The notes beneath the pieces were generated by a model. It saw only the letters and a program-made list of their open reading frames with translations, made no database searches and was not told the DNA's origin. From contig OX597819.1 in NCBI GenBank assembly GCA_951406725.2, positions 106,578,001-106,642,000 on the forward strand: a stretch of DNA of 64,000 nucleotides. The letters are read 5' to 3'. Position numbers and translations under genes: made by a program. Source of the stretch: Octopus vulgaris (taxonomy: Eukaryota). This document shows, one piece after another, positions 6,281-57,149 of this stretch; the first letter of the stretch is position 1; each line of letters opens with the position of its first letter.

Positions 6281-7162
6281 ATGTCCAGAGCATGGAGACC
6301 CGACGAACTAGATTTATTCGTACGAGCATGGACGTGCGCCGACGGAGATAGCCCTAGCGAGGTGATTGCGGCTGCGCTGAAGAGCAAAGGCTACAAGAGG
6401 ACAGCGGCTCAGATGGAGCGAAAGAGACGGGAATTCGTGCGCTCATATGCGCTTATACGGTCGCACATTGGCGCACTTGATGCCATCTTTGAGAACGAGC
6501 GGGGCAAAGATGGCAAGAATGGAGACGATGAAAGAAGTCACCCCCACCTGGTGGACGCCCGGGAGGAGGTTTTGAATGAGAAACCTGCCCGGGAAGTGAA
6601 CCCAGGTGCAAGTTCTCCAACCGGCAGCAAAGGCCATGGAGACGGAGAACCCGGTGAAGAGGTAGAGGGAGGAGGAAGAACTAAAAGAAGGGCTGGTAGA
6701 GCTAAAGGAAAAGCTCAAGCAGGACCAAAGGGTGAAAAAACCAGGAATAGAAGTGGAACCGCAAAATATGGAAACAAACAGCGCACACGGGTGTGTAGGT
6801 TCTACCTGAGAGGTTCCTGCTGGCATGGAAAGGAAGGTGCAGGCTGCCGCTTTGCACATCGGGGACCCTGCCACAGAGACACGAGGCAGATGGACAAACC
6901 ATCAACACAAGGAAAAGGGATGGACCACGCACCACTTGCCCCAAAGCGGAGGTACGCAGATGTTGTGCGTGCCACAAACCACCAACATGATGTTGTCGAA
7001 AGGGCAGCTGCTGAGCAACAATCTTTTTTGTGCATGGCACAAAAGATTGTACAGCAGCTGACCTGGCTTCATCAAACCCAAGCCCGCAGGTGGGACTACC
7101 CACTATATACCAGACCACCACAGCAAACAGACCCAGGATGGACACCACCGGCAACAACGTAG
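6281..7162 (+). CDS. LINE ORF1: N-terminal Myb/SANT (trihelix)-like segment and CCCH zinc finger
   Basis: Intact 293-aa ORF. WRPDELDLFVRAW...IAAALKSKGYKRTAAQMERKRREFVRSY is trihelix-like. CRFYLRGSCWHGKEGAGCRFAH is a CCCH motif. Confidence 0.75.
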   Translation: MSRAWRPDELDLFVRAWTCADGDSPSEVIAAALKSKGYKRTAAQMERKRREFVRSYALIRSHIGALDAIFENERGKDGKNGDDERSHPHLVDAREEVLNEKPAREVNPGASSPTGSKGHGDGEPGEEVEGGGRTKRRAGRAKGKAQAGPKGEKTRNRSGTAKYGNKQRTRVCRFYLRGSCWHGKEGAGCRFAHRGPCHRDTRQMDKPSTQGKGMDHAPLAPKRRYADVVRATNHQHDVVERAAAEQQSFLCMAQKIVQQLTWLHQTQARRWDYPLYTRPPQQTDPGWTPPATT

Positions 7163-7821
7163 ACCTCACCTCGATGCTCCTAACGGAAACGCACCTAAAA
7201 CCGGATATAGCAGATGCGGAGTTACACATACCACAGTGTGCTGTACTACGGACCGACAGGAAAGAAAGGAGTCATGGAGGTGTTGCTATGTACATCGGTG
7301 AGGACCTCACACCCCAGGTCCTCTTGTCATACTCAAACTCGGTGTGTGACACACTAATAGTACATATTAGGCAACTTGATGTAGTTGTGTGTGCTACATA
7401 TCGTCCTCCAGATGCCCCAAGCCATGTGGGCAAGTTTGAAGACTGCCTTATAAAAATAGAAGAAGTATTAACCACATTAGAACAACACATAAGTGTACTT
7501 CTTATGGGAGACTTCAATCTGCCCAATGTCAGATGGCCCGAGGGCCTTTCTCTCCCAGGAATGACAAGATGTGAACGAGGACAGGCGAGGTCCCTCCTGA
7601 ACCTCATCAACACCCTGTACATGGAGCAGGTAATACTCCAACCAACCAGGGCAGGTAATACACTGGATCTCTGCTTCACAAATGACATGGATCTCATCCA
7701 TAATGTGAAAGTGACACCGACACTACTCTCGGATCACAACATGATAGAGCTGACCATGTATGGGCCAAAAGAGAGCACGGACATGCAGCCTACAAGAACC
7801 CCCAGAATCTTTCCAGCTTGA
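7138..7821 (+). pseudogene. LINE ORF2 AP-endonuclease domain (N-terminal motif apparently deleted; frameshift before RT)
   Basis: Motifs LTETHL, RTDR..RSHGGVAMY, YRPP, MGDFNLP, PTRAGNTLDL, SDHN. The first APE motif that should precede TETHL is missing. Confidence 0.85.
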
Positions 7822-10043
7822 ACTACCATAAGGCAAACTGGAAACAAATTGAGAAAGAGATCCTCAAACAAAACTGGCCTAAATGTCTCTCCTCGCCAGA
7901 CATCGACGTGAAACTTCAACAATTCATGTCTGTAATGCAAGCCATATGCTACAAATGTGTCCCAGAGAGAAAGGCCACTGTACACAAGAACAAAATCCCC
8001 AGAGAGAGGAAAATTTTAATGAGACGGCGTACAAAATTTTCAAATCGCCTAAACAAACAGATTGAAAGCAGTGAAAAGTCCCGCCTAAAAATAAAAATAA
8101 AACTGTTGGAAATCGAAAAATGTCTGCAACTCTCCCATGAAAAGGAAAGAGCAGACAAAGAAGCCTGGGCTATAGACAACATAAAATCTAACCCCAGAGC
8201 TTTCTACAGGTATGCCAAAGAAACAGCTACGGTGCACTGTAGAATAGGGTCACTCCTCGAAAAGGATGGCACACTTACAGGAAAACCAATGAGGGTAAGT
8301 GAAATACTGAATGAGCAATTCAAGAGTGTTTTCACTCCACCCCTTGGGCATCTCCAAATCACCAATCCAACTGACTTTTTTACCACTGCAGATATAAAAT
8401 CAGAGGCGGCGACGATAGATTACATCGATATAAAGGAAGACGATGTAATCAAGGCTATAGATGAAATGAAAACAGACTCAGCTACTGACCCCGATGGATT
8501 CCCGGCAATCCTCCTAAAAGCATGTAAGAGAGTCCTAGCAAGACCACTGCAGTTCCTCTTTCAGAGCTTCCTTGCAGCTGGCAAACTTCCAAGAAAACTG
8601 GAGGAAGGTAAAATATGCCCCATTCATAAAGGAGGTAGCAGAGCGGAAGCCAAGACCTATAGACCTATCTCTCTGACCTCACACATCAGCAAGGTCATGG
8701 AACGAATAGTCAGAAGGAAGCTGATCACCTTCCTTGAAGAGAATGACTTGTTGCCCGACACCCAACATGGTTTCCGACCAGGGAGAAGCTGTTTAACTCA
8801 GCTCCTACAACACTATGACTGGGTGCTGAAACGGCTGCTCAACCACTCAAATGTGGAAGTGATATATCTCGACTTTGCAAAGGCCTTTGATAAAGTCGAT
8901 CATGGAATGATATGTCACAAACTGCGTGATCTCAACATAGTTGGAAAACTGGGAGAATGGCTTCATGACTTTCTGAAAGATAGAAGTCAGGTGGTAGTGG
9001 CCAATGGGGCCACTTCCATTAACACGCAAATAGTGAGCGGTGTTCCGCAGGGCACTGTTCTCGGACCACTACTGTTCATAATGGCCCTCTCAGACATGCC
9101 CTCAGCCATGCAGAGAGCCACGATCACAAGTTATGCAGATGATACAAAAGTTTCACAGGCAATACAGAACCCTGAGGACACTAAACACCTGCAATGTGAG
9201 CTAGACAAAATATACAAGTGGGCCGAAAAGAATAGCATGCAGTTCAATGCTGAAAAGTTTCAAGCTCTATACTATCAGCATGCAAAACTAAATGCAATAC
9301 CCAATGAATACACTGGACCCGGAGGAATAGCAATCCCAGAGGCACAATCAGTGCGTGACCTAGGTATTTACATGAGTGATGACGCGACCTTTCGTGTACA
9401 TGTTGCTAAATTGGCAATGAAATGTAGACGACTGGCCGGATGGATCCTCAGAACCTTTAGAACAAGAGAACAAGAAACCATGATGGTCCTCTGGAGGACA
9501 CTTGTCCTAAGCCACTTTGACTACTGCTCTCAGTTATGGTCACCATCCAGTGTCAAGTTGATCACAGAGCTCGAGGCGATCCAACGTAGCTACACGAAGA
9601 AGATAGCCTCTATGCAGAATGTAAGCTACTGGGAAAGACTCAAGAGATTAAAACTATATTCCCTGGAGCGTAGGCGGGAAAGATATGCCATAATATACAT
9701 CTGGAAGATCCTGGAGGGAAGTGTCCTGAACTTTGGCATCGAGAGTTACGCAAATGCCAGAATTGGGCGCCACTGCGTGGTGCCTAGGACTCCAAACTTG
9801 CCATCAAGATGTAGGACAAGATTCTGTGATAGCCTGGGCTTCCGAGGCCCACAGCTCTTCAATATCCTCCCGAAGAACCTGAGAGACCTGCATGGGGTGG
9901 ATACAGATGTCTTTAAAATGAAGCTGGATCTCTTCCTGTCAGGTGTCCCAGATGAACCAACTTCACGGCAGGAGGGGCAGATGAGGGCAGCTGCATCGAA
10001 CTCTCTCATGCACCAGATAGCAGTTGCTAGAAAGCCTTCATGA
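7818..10043 (+). pseudogene. LINE ORF2 reverse transcriptase (741 open codons after a frameshift)
   Basis: Motifs YRPISLTS, QHGFRPGRSC, YLDFAKAFDKVDH, GVPQGTVLGP, YADD, RDLG, SLERRR. Confidence 0.92.
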
Positions 10044-44050: not shown

Positions 44051-46297
44051 TAGTTTTATTTTTATAGCGTGCTTTCACTTCACTACCGAGCACAGTTCTG
44101 TGTGCCTTGGGTATGTGCTGTGATTTGTTGTGATGCTCTGATGGTTATTGTATGGAAAGTGTTCTGCGTAGGATGTGTGCAGTGCCTAGTAGTGCAATTT
44201 TCTGTATGTTATACGTGTTTGTAAGTCCTGGTGTTTTTGTTATGTATTTGTCTGAATATTTTTTTATCATGCCTAATGCACCTACTATGATAGGAATTGT
44301 TTCTGTTTTCAGATTCCACATTCAAGTTATCTCTATTTCTAGGTCTTTGTATTTTGAGAGTTTCTCCATTTCTTTTAGAGACACGTTGTCATCAGCCGGT
44401 ATTGATACATCAATTAGAAAGCATTTTTTTCTTCATGATCTCTGACAACTATATCTGGTCTGTTGGCCTTAATTTCTCTATCTGTGTGTATCGGCATATC
44501 CCAGAGTATGGTTGCTTTCTCGTTTTCTGTGACCTTTTCTGGTGTGTGCCTATACCATCTTTTTTCTGTTGTTATTCCATAATGTTGGCATAGCTTCCAA
44601 TGTATGTAGGTTCCAACTCTGTCATGTCTGTGAATATATTCCTTCTTAGCCAGGACTGGGCAGCTAGAGATAATATGATTTATTGTTTCTTGTCCATCTC
44701 CACATATTCTGCAGTTACTTGTAATATTTCTTTTCATTACATGTTTTTGGTAATTTCTGGTGGGGAGGCTTTGGTCTTGTGCTGCAATTAAAAATCCCTC
44801 TGTTTCTGCTTTGAGTCCTGAGCTTCTCAACCATTGCTGGGATTTTTCTTTGTCTATTTCTTTTGCGTTTAGTTTAGTCCAGTATTTACCATGAAGGGGC
44901 TTTTCTTGCCATCGTTTTATCATGGTTCGTTGCTGTTCTATTTTTAGTTTGGATTTCATTTGTTTTATAGCTTTTGTTGTTTCTTCATCTTCTGCTTCTT
45001 CTTCATGTTTATTAGGTGGTATGATTTCTTGTTTGTATTTGTCAGCTTCCTTAAATACTGAGAACAGTTTTTTGTTTTGCTCGTGTTTTGCAGCTATCTG
45101 GATCAGTTTTCCTTCCTTCTGAAGTAGATATTTTTGCAGTCCTATGGTGGTTATTTTATAGTAGTTTTCCAGCTGTATAAGGCCTCTACCACCTTCTATA
45201 CGTTGTATATATAGTCTTTCTATGTCAGATTTTGGGTGATGCATCCTAGATCCTGTCATTATTTTTCTTGTTTTCCTATCTATTTTGGTCAGTTCATTTC
45301 GTGTCCAGTTAAGGATATTGTAGCTGTAACTTATAACTGGGACAGCTAAAGTGTTGATACCTATTATCTTGTTTTTAACATTGAGCTCTGTGTTTAGTAT
45401 TGATCTAACTCGTCTATAATATTCTTTTTTTTATTTTCTCTTTCATTTGTGTGTGTTGTGTCTTATCTAGTTCATGGATTCCTAAGTATTTGTAAGTTTG
45501 GCTTTGGTCTAATTCTTTTATTTCATTGGTTTTATCTAGTGTGATGTTGTTACTCTTAACTAGTTTTCCTCTTTCATGGTTACTTTGGCGCATTTTTCTA
45601 ATCCAAATTTCATATCTATTTCTTTGGTAAATCCATGAACTGTCTTTAATAGTGTTTCCAGCTGTTTGTCATTTGCAGCGTATAGTTTTAGGTCATCCAT
45701 ATATAAAAGGTGGCTGATCGTTTTGCCGTAACTTTTATATCCGCATCCAGTTCTATTTAGCATATCAGATGGAGGTGACAGTGCCAAGCAGAAAAGGAGT
45801 GGAGAGAGCGTGTCTCCCTGGAATATTCCTCTTCTAATGGGGATGTCTTTGGTTTTCATGAGTCCCTCTTTTGTTTGGAGGTGTAGGACTGTTTGCCATT
45901 TATTCATAGAGTGCTCTATGAATTTTATGATTGCTACTTTGTTAATGGCTAGTGTTTCGAGGATCCATGTGTGGGGGATGCTATCAAACGCCTTTTTGTA
46001 GTCAATCCAGGCCATACTGAGGCCTTTCTTCTTTCTGTGGCTGTCTTCAGTTATGGCTTTATTAATCATTAGTTGATCTTTACAGCCATATGAGCCTTTG
46101 CGGCATCCTTTCTGCTCTTCTGGGAACAGTTTGTTTTCGTCCAGGTGCTTGTTCAGCCTTTGTGATATCACTGCAGTAAATGCCTTGAACATAGTAGGGA
46201 GGCAGGTTATTGGTCTGTAGTTTTCTGGTTTTTCTGTTTCATTTGATTTGGGAATTAAGATGGTTTTCCCCTTCGTTAGCCATTCAGGCATTGTCTC
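44048..46297 (-). mobile_element. 5'-truncated R4/Dong-type RLE retrotransposon flanked by (TAA)n
   Basis: RT motifs YRPITCL, GIFQGDTLSP and HLLYMDDLK. Also CRICG..ETINHIISSC, RHD and RPDIV (RLE). TAA runs lie on both sides. Confidence 0.93.
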
Positions 46298-46452: not shown

Positions 46453-46454
<2 letters not shown>

Positions 46455-46910
46455 ATCAATCAATATAAGGGTAACAAAAAATTTCAAGAAAAAATTTCTT
46501 GAAATTTTTTTTTACCCTTATATTGATTGATTAATGAATTTTTGACTAATTCTGAAATTTGTATCAGCAGCTTATATTTGCTGCGGAGTAGATGGCGCGA
46601 TTACGGTGAATTCGAAAATTTACGATATATAGACCCGAGGCTTAGATGGTGTAGCCTCGTGTATATATATCTGCCTCCTATTTTGGTGACTTTGCTGACG
46701 AGAAAAGCCAAGCGTAAACTGATTTAATTTAATTAAATTAAATTTGATTGCGTGAAGATGTTGAAACCTTGCAGGGTACAAAGTTTGAAGGGGATAAATG
46801 TTTTTTATTTTCCTCTAGTTTCAGAATTACTACTATTTTTTGCGGTGTTGAGTTTTAGCTGCTCTTTTCAAGTGAGTCGAACGACCTTCTCCTTAATATT
46901 TTGTTGAATG

Positions 46911-53223: not shown

Positions 53224-55690
53224 CACTGGTCGAAAACAAACACGATTTTTGGTGCTAAGAAACAAAACACATTTTTTTAGCTTATTTGATGGAGCTGATT
53301 CCGAAAAGGAACTTAGTTTTTCATGATTAGCTACCGTTTTTGCTGCACTGAAATTGCTCATTTTTGGAAAAAAGATCAATTTACAATCTTGGCTGATTGC
53401 AAAATTCAGTTAGAAACCCATGAATTTTCAGGTAGGTCGAGCAATTTATGTCAGCCACCTGAAATAAAATATTTCTATAAGCAAAAGGTGTTTTTGAGTC
53501 AAATCTTTTAAAATACACGTACCGAAGTTTTCCAATTTCTTGCCAAAATTCAAATTAACTGATAAACTTTCTCAGTAATATACTCTAGTAAACCTGATAA
53601 GTAAGGTGACATAAAAAAAAAGATGAAACCCTAAAATCTTCTGTTTGATAGTCATAAATTTATCCTATCACTTTTATCCTTTCAATACGGAAGGAAACCA
53701 AGCACATTAATAGCTTCTGTTTTCACAGTTAGAAAAAGGTCCGACTAAAGACATACCAATTGAATGCACTTATTCCATTGTACATGATGAACATCATGAA
53801 AATGGTTTCACCAAAACATCTGCCCTCCACCCGGTATTACGAAGATAGGAAGTAGAATCAGTGTAACGACTCTTTCCGTCTTTTGTTATTGACAGTTTTA
53901 CAAGTTTTTCTGTAGGACATTAGGAAAGATCAAATTTCCTAAATGTGAAGACACAAAGTGTAATGTAAATGCTTAACCAACTCATGTTCTCTTTTAATCA
54001 TAGAGATAGAAATCAAATGGCATGGATTCAAAGAGAGGGCGCAAAAATGATCCCAATTCGACCAGTGCCGCATTCAGATGATTTGCCAATTCCAGGTTTT
54101 TACAAAAATGTGTTTAAACTTGTTTAAAGTGACGCGTCTGATACTCGAGTAAATGAGAGACAGCGAAAACGATCCTGACTATGTTCCCGAAGCCGTACCA
54201 GAGCCGTTTAACCAAAATGAGCTGAATGATTTGATTCGGGACTTAAATCTAAGCAAAGAATCAGTAGAACTTTTGGCCTCTATGCTCAACGAAGAACACC
54301 TGTTAGCAAAAGGCACACATGTAACATGCTATCAAAATAGGGATGCCGAATTTGTACCATTATTTAATGAGAACACATATCTTGTTCATTGCAATGATGT
54401 TGAGAGCGTTCTTCTTCGACAAGGCGTCCACAAATACGATCCTGATGAATGGAGATTGTTCATTGATAGTTCAAAACGTAATTTGAAATTCGTTTTGCTC
54501 CATAATATCAACATGTGTGCACCAATACCTATAGGTCATTCAACAAAACTGAAAGAAAAACATGATTTTATCAAACAGGATATGGAACAGATTGACTGCA
54601 CCAAATACACATTGGTGTTAACTGGTAAATTTCCTGCTTGATCAACAAAGTGGCTACACGAAATTCCCATGTTTATTTTTGTGTGTTTGTGGGACAGCAG
54701 AGCAAAAAAAGAGCACTGGAAAAGGAAAGAGAGAAAAGAACGTTATTACTGCAGCGCTAATTTCGAAAGAAAAAAATTATCTTCCCTCCCTTGCATATCA
54801 AATTGGGATTAATGAAACAGTATGTAAGATCACTCGTGAAAGAAAGTAAATGTTTTGAGTATATATGTAAATCGTTTCCAGAACGTAGCACCGAAAAACT
54901 CAAAGCAGGAGTTTTTGATGGTCCTGATACCTGGAGACTCATTAAGGACGATGAATGTGTTAATTCAATGAATGACTTGGAATTACGCGCTTGGACATTG
55001 GTGGGAAAGCTGTTGAAAAGTCTACAGGACATAGGCGCTGATATGAGTATTAAGGTTCTTTTTTTATATAGCCATCTAGATAAATATCCGGATAATTACG
55101 GCGATGTGAGTGATGAACTAGGAGAACGATTTCATCAGGATATCAAAACAATGGAAGAGCGCTACCATGGACGGTGGAACAAAGGAATGATGTCTGACCA
55201 CTGCTGGAATATCAAAAGGGACTTAAATAATATTGAACATGGCAGACAATCAAGAAAGAGAAAAACAATTACCATGGTTCTTATGTTCACGAAAGCTTTA
55301 ATTCGGCTGTTAATTTATTTAACAATTTTATGAAAATACTTGTTTGACTTGGTATATCCAATCGTGTTATTTTTAAAGACTTAGGATCTGATTGTTATTG
55401 CAAAAATAGTATTTCTCAATAAGCAGACCAATATTTGTAGGTTTAAATACGAATTGAGAGGTTTCTACAATTATACTTTGAGAAATATTACCACCGATCA
55501 ATATCAAATTTAAAGAAAGCAAATGAAGAAAATGCCATTTTTTCCAAAAATGAGGCATTTCTGTACAGAGAAAACGGTAGCTAACCAAGAAAAGGTAAGG
55601 TCATTCTCAGATTCAACACCCTCAAATTAGCTAAAAAAAGACGTTTGGTGTCTCGACACCATTTCAATTATTGTTTATTGTTAACCAGTG
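53224..55690 (+). mobile_element. Chapaev3-like (CMC) DNA transposon with TAA target-site duplication
   Basis: taa|CACTGG...CCAGTG|taa with ~150-bp imperfect TIRs and a disrupted transposase. Confidence 0.8.
54153..55333 (+). pseudogene. Chapaev3-like transposase (frameshifted, internal deletions)
   Basis: FNQNELNDLIRDLNLSKE, WRLFIDSSK..LK.VLLHN, LHIKLGLMKQ, KLKAGVFDGP, SDELGERFHQDI..MEERY.GRW...M.DHCW. Confidence 0.8.
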
Positions 55691-55731
55691 TAATCATACT
55701 AATAATTATATATAAGTTTGCGTGTATATAT

Positions 55732-55793
<62 letters not shown>

Positions 55794-56296
55794 ACAATAA
55801 AGGAACGGCCATAATAGGCCATTCACCCACTAGAAATAACAGCCAAAGCTTCAACCGCAAATAAAAGTTAATTCAGTAAACCAGGAGAAAATTTAAAAAA
55901 CATTTACCCTGTAATTTCTTATGTTTTTTAAATTTTCTCCTGGTTTACTGAATTAACTTTTATTTGCGGTTGAAGCTTTGGCTGTTATTTCTAGTGGGTG
56001 AATGGCCTATTATGGCCGTTCCTTTATTGTTGATGTTGAACTTAAAAATGGTCTATGACTATTTTAATTTTTTCCTACTAGGCCGCTGGTGGCAGAAGAA
56101 TTCTACAAAATTTTTTTTGCCACCCTATATTGATTAATTATGAATTTTCTGGTTAATTCCGTAATGGAATCGACGGCTTATATTTATTTGCTGCCGATAA
56201 ATTTGGCGCGAGTGCGACGATTTGAAAATTTTAGGTCAGATATAAACTTGGCAACGTCGGAAATGCCTCGTGAAAATATCTGTTCCGTCTTGGGCT

Positions 56297-56403
56297 ATTT
56301 CTTACTGAAGAATCTGAGGGCCTGTGGAAGATTGGCTTGATTTAATTTAATCAGGTTAGTTTACCATTAATCAGCAGATGAAACGGTATATCGTATAAGA
56401 AAT
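56297..56403 (+). ncRNA. Type I hammerhead ribozyme, copy 1 (predicted cleavage after GUA, 56395)
   Basis: ATTTCTTA-CTGAAGA-ATCTG[58 nt]CAGAT-GAAA-CGGTATATCG-TA^-TAAGAAAT. 8-bp stem I, 5-bp stem II base, near-palindromic stem III and an intact core. Confidence 0.88.
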
Positions 56404-56789
56404 TACAGGGTAAATGTTTTTTAAATTTTCTCCTGGTTTACTGAATTAACTTTTATTTGCGGTTGAAGCTTTGGCTGTTATTTCTAGTGGGTGAATGGCC
56501 TATTATGGCCGTTCCTTTATTGTTGATGTTGAACTTAAAAATGGTCTATGACTATTTTAAATTTTTCCTACTAGGCCGCTGGTGGCAGAAGAATTCTACA
56601 AAATTTTTTTTGCCACCCTATATTGATTAATTATGAATTTTCTGGTTAATTCCGTAATGGAATCGACGGCTTATATTTATTTGCTGCCGATAAATTTGGC
56701 GCGAGTGCGACGATTTGAAAATTTTAGGTCAGATATAAACTTGGCAACGTCGGAAATGCCTCGTGAAAATATCTGTTCCGTCTTGGGCT

Positions 56790-56896
56790 ATTTCTTACTG
56801 AAGAATCTGAGGGCCTGTGGAAGATTGGCTTGATTTAATTTAATCAGGTTAGTTTACCATTAATCAGCAGATGAAACGGTATATCGTATAAGAAAT
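56790..56896 (+). ncRNA. Type I hammerhead ribozyme, copy 2 (predicted cleavage after 56888)
   Basis: Identical to 56297-56403 at +493. Confidence 0.88.
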
Positions 56897-57118
56897 TACA
56901 GGGTAAATGTTTTTTAAATTTTCTCCTGGTTTACTGAATTAACTTTTATTTGCGGTTGAAGCTTTGGCTGTTATTTCTAGTGGGTGAATGGCCTATTATG
57001 GCCGTTCCTTTATTGTTGATGTTGAACTTAAAAATGGTCTATGACTATTTTAATTTTTTCCTACTAGGCCGCTGGTGGCAGAAGAATTCTACAAAATTTT
57101 TTTTGCCACCCTATATTG

Positions 57119-57147
<29 letters not shown>

Positions 57148-57149
<2 letters not shown>

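Follow-up and report, generated by a model that had tools for sequence, protein, structure and literature searches.

Inner breakpoints near the predicted hammerhead cut in a family of two-armed repeat insertions of Octopus vulgaris

Animal non-LTR retrozymes have been proposed to be moved by Penelope-like elements (PMC7229834; bioRxiv 10.64898/2026.07.22.740005). The repeat analyzed here resembles these retrozymes in its tandem non-coding units with a type I hammerhead, its low GC and its hundreds of dispersed copies, and differs from them in its unit of 493 bp, compared with the reported range of about 170-400 nt. Head-to-head arms, fixed priming sites, (TA)n targeting and breakpoint maps are not described in the available text of either source, where the word "inverted" occurs 0 times (PMC7229834) and once, in a reference title (bioRxiv 10.64898/2026.07.22.740005). 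Endonuclease-bearing Penelope-like elements (PMC8557442, PMC3846280, PMC11167929) are similar to the locus in having an inverted 5'-truncated copy beside a direct copy, a one-sided extension, two internal start sites for reverse transcriptase (RT), AT-rich or microsatellite targets and a hammerhead near the ends. Unlike these elements, the unit described here has no ORF, and its tail is about 107 bp instead of 30-40.

Starting from two internal RNA sites, which define the tail, a purified Penelope-like protein extends both target strands, and hammerhead mutants were without effect on insertion in vitro (PMC11167929). For the anole element, the available text of the same study reports no RNA-seq reads that began or ended at its cut (PMC11167929), whereas the genomic ends described here track the predicted cut. 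The nearest precedent is R2 with its HDV-like ribozyme, in which genomic 5' junctions reflect the ribozyme cut and vary through chance microhomology where the element's 5' end lies at the cut (PMC3774820). However, R2 has another ribozyme and another enzyme, one cDNA and a fixed rDNA target, and its cleavage was demonstrated in vitro, whereas the hammerhead cut here is predicted (PMC3774820). No published map of retrozyme or Penelope breakpoints onto a hammerhead cut, and no published repeat addition at such joints, was found in the literature searched, which held few subscription journals and main texts without supplements. The element is of a known kind and the mechanistic record is likely new.

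Anatomy of the insertion and its family

The window is the whole stretch of 64,000 nucleotides that was analyzed. At this locus a 493-bp hammerhead repeat has inserted into (TA)n as two head-to-head arms (features in Table 1). Unit positions are counted on window positions 56396-56888, where +1 is the first base 3' of the GTA at 56393-56395. Window positions 55790-55921 are the exact reverse complement of unit +1..+132 and form a 132-bp inverted arm, which can be extended by 1 base beyond the cut; the forward arm, which starts at 55922 (+20), can be extended by 1 base back. The arms overlap by 2 nt (AT, 55921-55922), and the inverted arm therefore ends between -1 and +2. An earlier sequence-only reading had placed this end at the predicted GUA cut, followed by a switch to the forward strand about 18 nt downstream through 1-2 nt of microhomology. 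The end was confirmed within 1 nt, and so was the switch, which lies at +19/+20 and uses both bases of the overlap.

The forward arm holds 2.4 units, from +20 to +234 (57122), and the three forward units of the locus show one base difference among them. Both outer ends of the insertion lie inside (TA)n, which would mask any target-site duplication, and no ORF of at least 130 aa occurs over 55790-57122. By our own arithmetic, the chance that a single two-armed insertion has an end no more than 1 nt from the cut is about 1% (2 arms x 3/493).

Table 1. Features of the two-armed insertion, in window positions.
Feature	Window positions	Strand	Basis
Left-flank (TA)n target	55726..55791	.	Sequence; other copies of the family likewise in (TA)n
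Inverted arm, unit +132 to +1, whose outer end is the fixed short one of the family	55790..55921	-	186 genome matches of the end joined to TATA
Head-to-head junction, 2-nt AT microhomology; predicted cut (inverted side), +19/+20 (forward side)	55921..55922	.	Copy L094
Forward arm, first partial unit (+20 to +493)	55922..56395	+	
Type I hammerhead 1, predicted cut 56395/56396 after GUA	56297..56403	+	Motifs, folding, covariation
Complete 493-bp unit between two cut sites, the predicted RNA monomer	56396..56888	+	
+1..+30, zone of piled-up family inner breakpoints	56396..56425	+	
+22..+34 (T6 A3 T4), reiterated in junction inserts of other copies	56417..56429	+	
Type I hammerhead 2, predicted cut 56888/56889	56790..56896	+	
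Last partial unit (+1 to +234), with the long end of the family on its outer side	56889..57122	+	
Tail, on forward arm only	57021-57122	+	
Right-flank (TA)n target	57121..57148	.	Sequence

The ORFs of the window are LINE-type or without assignment. A LINE-type element, interrupted by a frameshift and containing endonuclease and RT domains (PF14529, PF00078), lies at 7015-10043, a zf-RVT fragment at 44414-45430, and two open frames without a Pfam match, which resemble a decayed transposon, at 54153-55333, just upstream of the insertion. A distant relative at 46453-46909 (about 60% identity over the aligned part, as judged by eye) has the same layout in (TA)n, with an 81-bp near-palindrome at its long end followed by a forward unit. 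This unit has its own type I hammerhead, with an ACTTTG/CAAAGT stem I, CTGACGA at 46695 and a GTA cut.

The 2.8-Gb genome was searched with three patterns of the +132 end joined to TATA, which gave 186, 246 and 441 matches and thus at least 873 insertions. A GUC subfamily is represented by 645 matches in which A is not the base before +1 (almost always C in the matches listed), and a further subfamily carries C at +1. By sequence criteria the element is a 493-bp non-LTR retrozyme, since it consists of tandem non-coding units, each with a type I hammerhead, and forms a dispersed multi-copy family (186 + 246 + 441 end matches). It appears to behave as a non-autonomous Penelope-like element, given its inverted truncated arm, one-sided tail and microsatellite target.

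The main sample was the first 100 of the 186 matches, which were picked by their outer end, so that the sample is blind to the inner joint; one copy (L102) was dropped for an N gap, leaving 99. A second, opposed arm was present in 77 of the 99 copies, and in 76 of these 77 its outer end lay at +229..+243, the other arm ending at +132. Thus, the outer ends are fixed, at +132 and about +239, while the inner ends are variable. Divergence between the arms of one copy was 0.0027 per site, a figure that includes alignment noise at three loci, versus 0.0060 between copies (67 loci), and mid-frequency variants were common to both arms 29 times versus 2 discordant cases. Because of these shared variants and the lower divergence within copies, both arms come from one RNA or one source.

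None of the public sequencing runs with matches to the family is recorded as RNA; contigs came from four runs whose RNA status was guessed. A 523-nt contig wraps the unit and is compatible with both a circle and a tandem array. In L211/L212 a private variant occurs in alternate units, possibly because the template was a dimeric circle.

A GIY-YIG scan identified in the same genome an intact family with a 781-aa RT/GIY-YIG ORF, which has the same two-ended layout and copies in (TA)n. No similarity above shuffles was detected between this family and the 493-bp unit in 20 full copies and 20 further loci. This young autonomous Penelope-like family (L344-L363; for example, L355 2439-4781) has many intact copies, an upstream ORF in addition to the 781-aa frame with its cysteine-motif linker, and two 3' ends separated by about 40 bp, the short one being that of the inverted arm. 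A pattern search found no canonical hammerhead in it, although a variant core is possible about 75 nt ahead of the short end. Penelope-like fragments near L057, L112, L142 and L236 were rejected as partners; they look like neighbours in the same microsatellites.

Predicted type I hammerhead

A type I hammerhead is present at each unit boundary: the CUGANGA, GAAA and NUH core segments are joined by three helices, with helix I open. In hammerhead 1, the 8-bp stem I (56297-56304/56396-56403) is followed by CUGAAGA (56305-56311) and a long stem II, and then by GAAA (56380-56383), a short stem III with a palindromic UAUA loop, and GUA. Rfam hammerhead models gave 0 matches at the gathering score, and stem II is unusually long. 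In unconstrained folding (z -3.8), part of the core is paired into an extended stem II. Since this extended stem is favoured over the core and stem III is weak, the predicted ribozyme may need a dimer form to act.

Among 14 frequent genomic variants the core is kept, while N7 and H17 (A or C) vary as allowed. Four pairs are altered on both sides in these 14 variants, including an A-U to G-C pair adjoining the cut, compared with 0 in slid controls. The rows are related sequences that were hand-picked as frequent variants, so the covariation supports a hammerhead structure conserved across variants, not activity. We infer that the predicted hammerhead probably cuts germ-line RNA, and the in vivo cleavage put forward by the sequence-only reading is likewise a putative step.

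Inner breakpoints around the predicted cut

The inner ends of the family were mapped onto the unit (n = 173, 98 + 75); the window's copy was excluded, as was L116's second arm, whose end lies elsewhere. Expected counts were weighted by the frequency of arms passing each base. P-values treat copies as independent, and identical junctions occur in the pairs L064/L068, L195/L199 and L286/L288. Positions +1..+30 hold 52 of the 173 ends versus 12.0 expected (p 6e-20; 98 other copies), with 24 ends at +1..+10 (3.7 expected) and 28 at +11..+30 (8.3 expected). The neighbouring stretches are close to expectation, with 12 ends at -30..-4 (9.2 expected) and 10 at +31..+60 (13.3 expected). The main peaks are at +5, +8 and +22, and in this unbiased sample there is no excess within 3 nt of the cut (3/173 versus 2.1 expected). 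Breakpoints lying exactly on the cut were therefore rejected as a rule for the family.

A second set drew on another end type, using the first 40 of its 441 copies and excluding three second arms with other outer ends. In this set, which includes GUC copies, +1..+30 holds 11 of 71 ends versus 4.8 expected (p 0.008), a weaker enrichment than in the main set (Fisher p 0.024), and the replication rests on these 40 loci. In the main set, a second hot zone at +205..+227 (window 56600-56622) holds 20 of the 173 ends versus 8.6 expected (p 4e-4); it adjoins a hairpin and an oligo-U tract and is distant from the ribozyme, immediately inside the long priming site.

Ends at the cut itself were counted in a genome-wide census, whose patterns require a break at a given base, for all bases from -6 to +5; matches were sorted into junctions and substitutions. 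The census requires an exact match at +5..+21, omits the subfamily with C at +1 and includes the window's copy, and two loci (L284, L210) were re-sorted by eye as not breaking at the site. From -6 to -1 the junction ends number 4, 0, 4, 2, 11 and 4, and from +1 to +4 they number 11, 8, 4 and 1; at +5 there are 25 among the first 30 of 62 matches. Thus 38 ends (36 loci) fall at -2..+3 versus 10 at -6..-3 (p 6e-4), about 3 times the upstream rate. Microhomology with A/T-rich partners moves apparent ends upstream, which accounts for the ends at -2. These loci are a minority of the family, 36 against at least 873 insertions, or about 4%, although this exceeds the roughly 1% chance for a single two-armed insertion. 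Two copies (L172/173 and L200/201) form perfect palindromes whose arms join at the cut. In addition, L167 has a deletion from -21 to -1 that ends at the cut through a TA microhomology, and L208 a 6-bp duplication at the cut; these may be template jumps or imprecise re-ligation.

A random spread of breakpoints, which the sequence-only reading had named as the outcome that would speak against it, was not what the family showed, either in the +1..+30 zone or at the cut. Its further claim that RT ran off the 5' end of a cleaved RNA fits the enrichment just 3' of the cut but does not carry over as an exact coincidence. Cleaved RNA as template likewise agrees with the hot zone at +1..+30, but not as the sole template, since 108 of the 173 arms cross at least one intact cut site. 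The interpretation is thus partly supported at the family level, in a softened form.

Origin of the inner ends and of the joints

The best reading of the data is that two target-primed cDNAs run off self-cleaved RNA and are then trimmed and joined by microhomology. The piled-up ends likely record RT copying self-cleaved RNA to its end in the germ line, to which we assign a probability of roughly 0.65. The array would be transcribed, and the hammerhead would cut after GUA or GUC to give linear RNAs starting at +1, beside circles and partly cut multimers. A GIY-YIG/RT Penelope-like protein would nick (TA)n on both strands and start reverse transcription at two internal sites. On cut RNA, both cDNAs would stop at or near +1, and on circles or multimers they would continue through several units. 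The two cDNA 3' ends would be joined by short microhomology, usually after losing 4-28 nt, and joining would sometimes add reiterated T/A inserts. The window's copy would be one of the few with one end left untrimmed. Trimming has to be assumed, because most of the enriched ends lie 4-28 nt inside the cut and not at it. In addition, circles or partly cut multimers would be the commoner template, given the number of arms that cross a cut site; retrozyme RNA is reported as mixtures of linear and circular forms (PMC7229834), which fits a mixed template pool.

A possible but rather unlikely alternative is that two primed cDNAs form on uncut or circular RNA, that RT stalls at structure (stem I, a hairpin spanning about +11..+40, or the U6 tract, +22..+27) and that AT-rich microhomologies determine the joint. 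On this view the correspondence with the cut would be indirect, and the exact match of the window's copy would be partly luck. The peak at +8/+9 lies at the edge of stem I, where RT would first meet this stem, and the peak at +22 at the edge of the U tract. Positions +5..+33 are also rich in short self-complementary words that favour joining, and these features count against the cut-end reading. The second hot zone, at its oligo-U tract and hairpin, lies far from the ribozyme, so sequence or structure alone can make hot zones. Stalling would also suit the ten ends just upstream of the cut, within stem III, the excess that persists beyond the first lap (15/108 versus 4.6 expected) and the dispensability of hammerhead activity in vitro (PMC11167929). 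However, the excess is one-sided, at +1..+30 only with none upstream of the cut, and in the main sample it is absent from the core plus stem III and from the far stronger stem II (22 ends versus 21.9 expected; -24.8 kcal/mol, compared with only -4.5 for stem I). The two arms of a copy also tend to stop in the hot zone together, which counts against stalling: among 75 copies, both arms stop there in 15, one only in 10 and 6, and neither in 44 (odds ratio 11, p 3e-5). Hot-zone stops are also in excess in single arms (6/23 versus 1.7 expected) and in arms whose partner ends elsewhere (16/104 versus 7.1 expected). Stopping is more frequent on the first lap (39/150) than on later laps (13/114; p 0.003), and this, together with the local peak at -2..+3 and the blunt or 2-nt palindromic joints exactly at the cut, argues against stalling.

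At the joints there is microhomology of 0-6 nt or an insert copied from sequence close by. In L1 twin priming, cDNA is primed at both target nicks, and an inversion results when microhomology joins the two 3' ends. Here, unlike in L1, the priming sites are fixed and internal, and the arms overlap by at least 100 bp and can be multimeric. The sequence-only reading had also allowed that a single cDNA folded back. Of 14 copies in which both arms are first-lap with hot-zone ends, 11 have a short arm that extends further towards the cut than the long arm (2 opposite, 1 equal), so that the short arm holds bases absent from the long cDNA, which fold-back of the long cDNA cannot give; in turn, +133..+239 cannot come from the short cDNA. 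The two outer ends have fixed positions next to (TA)n, as expected of primed ends. Fold-back of one cDNA was therefore rejected as a general mechanism, two separately primed cDNAs fitting better, and we regard it as very unlikely that the inverted arm is made in this way or by self-priming of antisense RNA, which has been proposed for Penelope palindromes (PMC3846280). This is so even though near-symmetric joints are frequent outside the hot zone (10/44 versus 1.9 expected), a few joints have short fold-back additions (for example, ATG(T) after GTAA in L105 and L108), and the long arm of the window's copy contains later units able to template +1..+132. A later DNA rearrangement of the tandem array, or an assembly artefact, with its position set by chance, is extremely unlikely. 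A single junction leaves room for chance, but the fixed two-ended layout of the 77 two-armed copies, with 76 ending at +229..+243 versus +132, largely refutes this explanation. The intact Penelope-like family in the genome shows the same layout, and a contig from the public runs holds a head-to-head joint at +12/+128.

At least three tandem T4-8/A2-7 units are present at the joints of 6 of 100 copies, with up to 16 units (153 bp), and a strict insert pattern found 6 loci genome-wide, two of them shared with the six. Copies with tandem T-rich/AAA junction inserts include L056, L042, L107, L108, L112 and L364-L369. The insert unit corresponds to +22..+30, with +31..+34 as a possible realignment site of the kind found in telomerase templates. 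Inserts of this sort are also made by host polymerase-theta joining, and those seen here may reflect either telomerase-like reiteration or polymerase-theta-type synthesis. A fuller proposal, which we offer tentatively and consider doubtful as a whole, is that hundreds of young insertions record the cycle of a Penelope-like enzyme, with two fixed priming sites, a cut-linear or circular template, and telomerase-like realignment on the 1.5-repeat U6-A3-U4 that adds up to 16 repeats.

The class of element is already known, and the single junction in the window is one point in a distribution. The role of the hammerhead in Penelope-like elements has been described as unclear (PMC8557442) and the hammerhead was dispensable in the one in vitro study (PMC11167929), and the formation of head-to-head inverted copies is unsettled (PMC3846280). 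This young, short, high-copy family provides a base-level map that bears on both the role of the hammerhead and the formation of inverted copies. It also links animal retrozymes to Penelope-like enzymes by an insertion signature, beyond sequence likeness. If the fuller proposal is true, the family would offer genomic evidence for a hammerhead-cut germ-line template and for repeat addition by a telomerase-sister RT on a mobile RNA.
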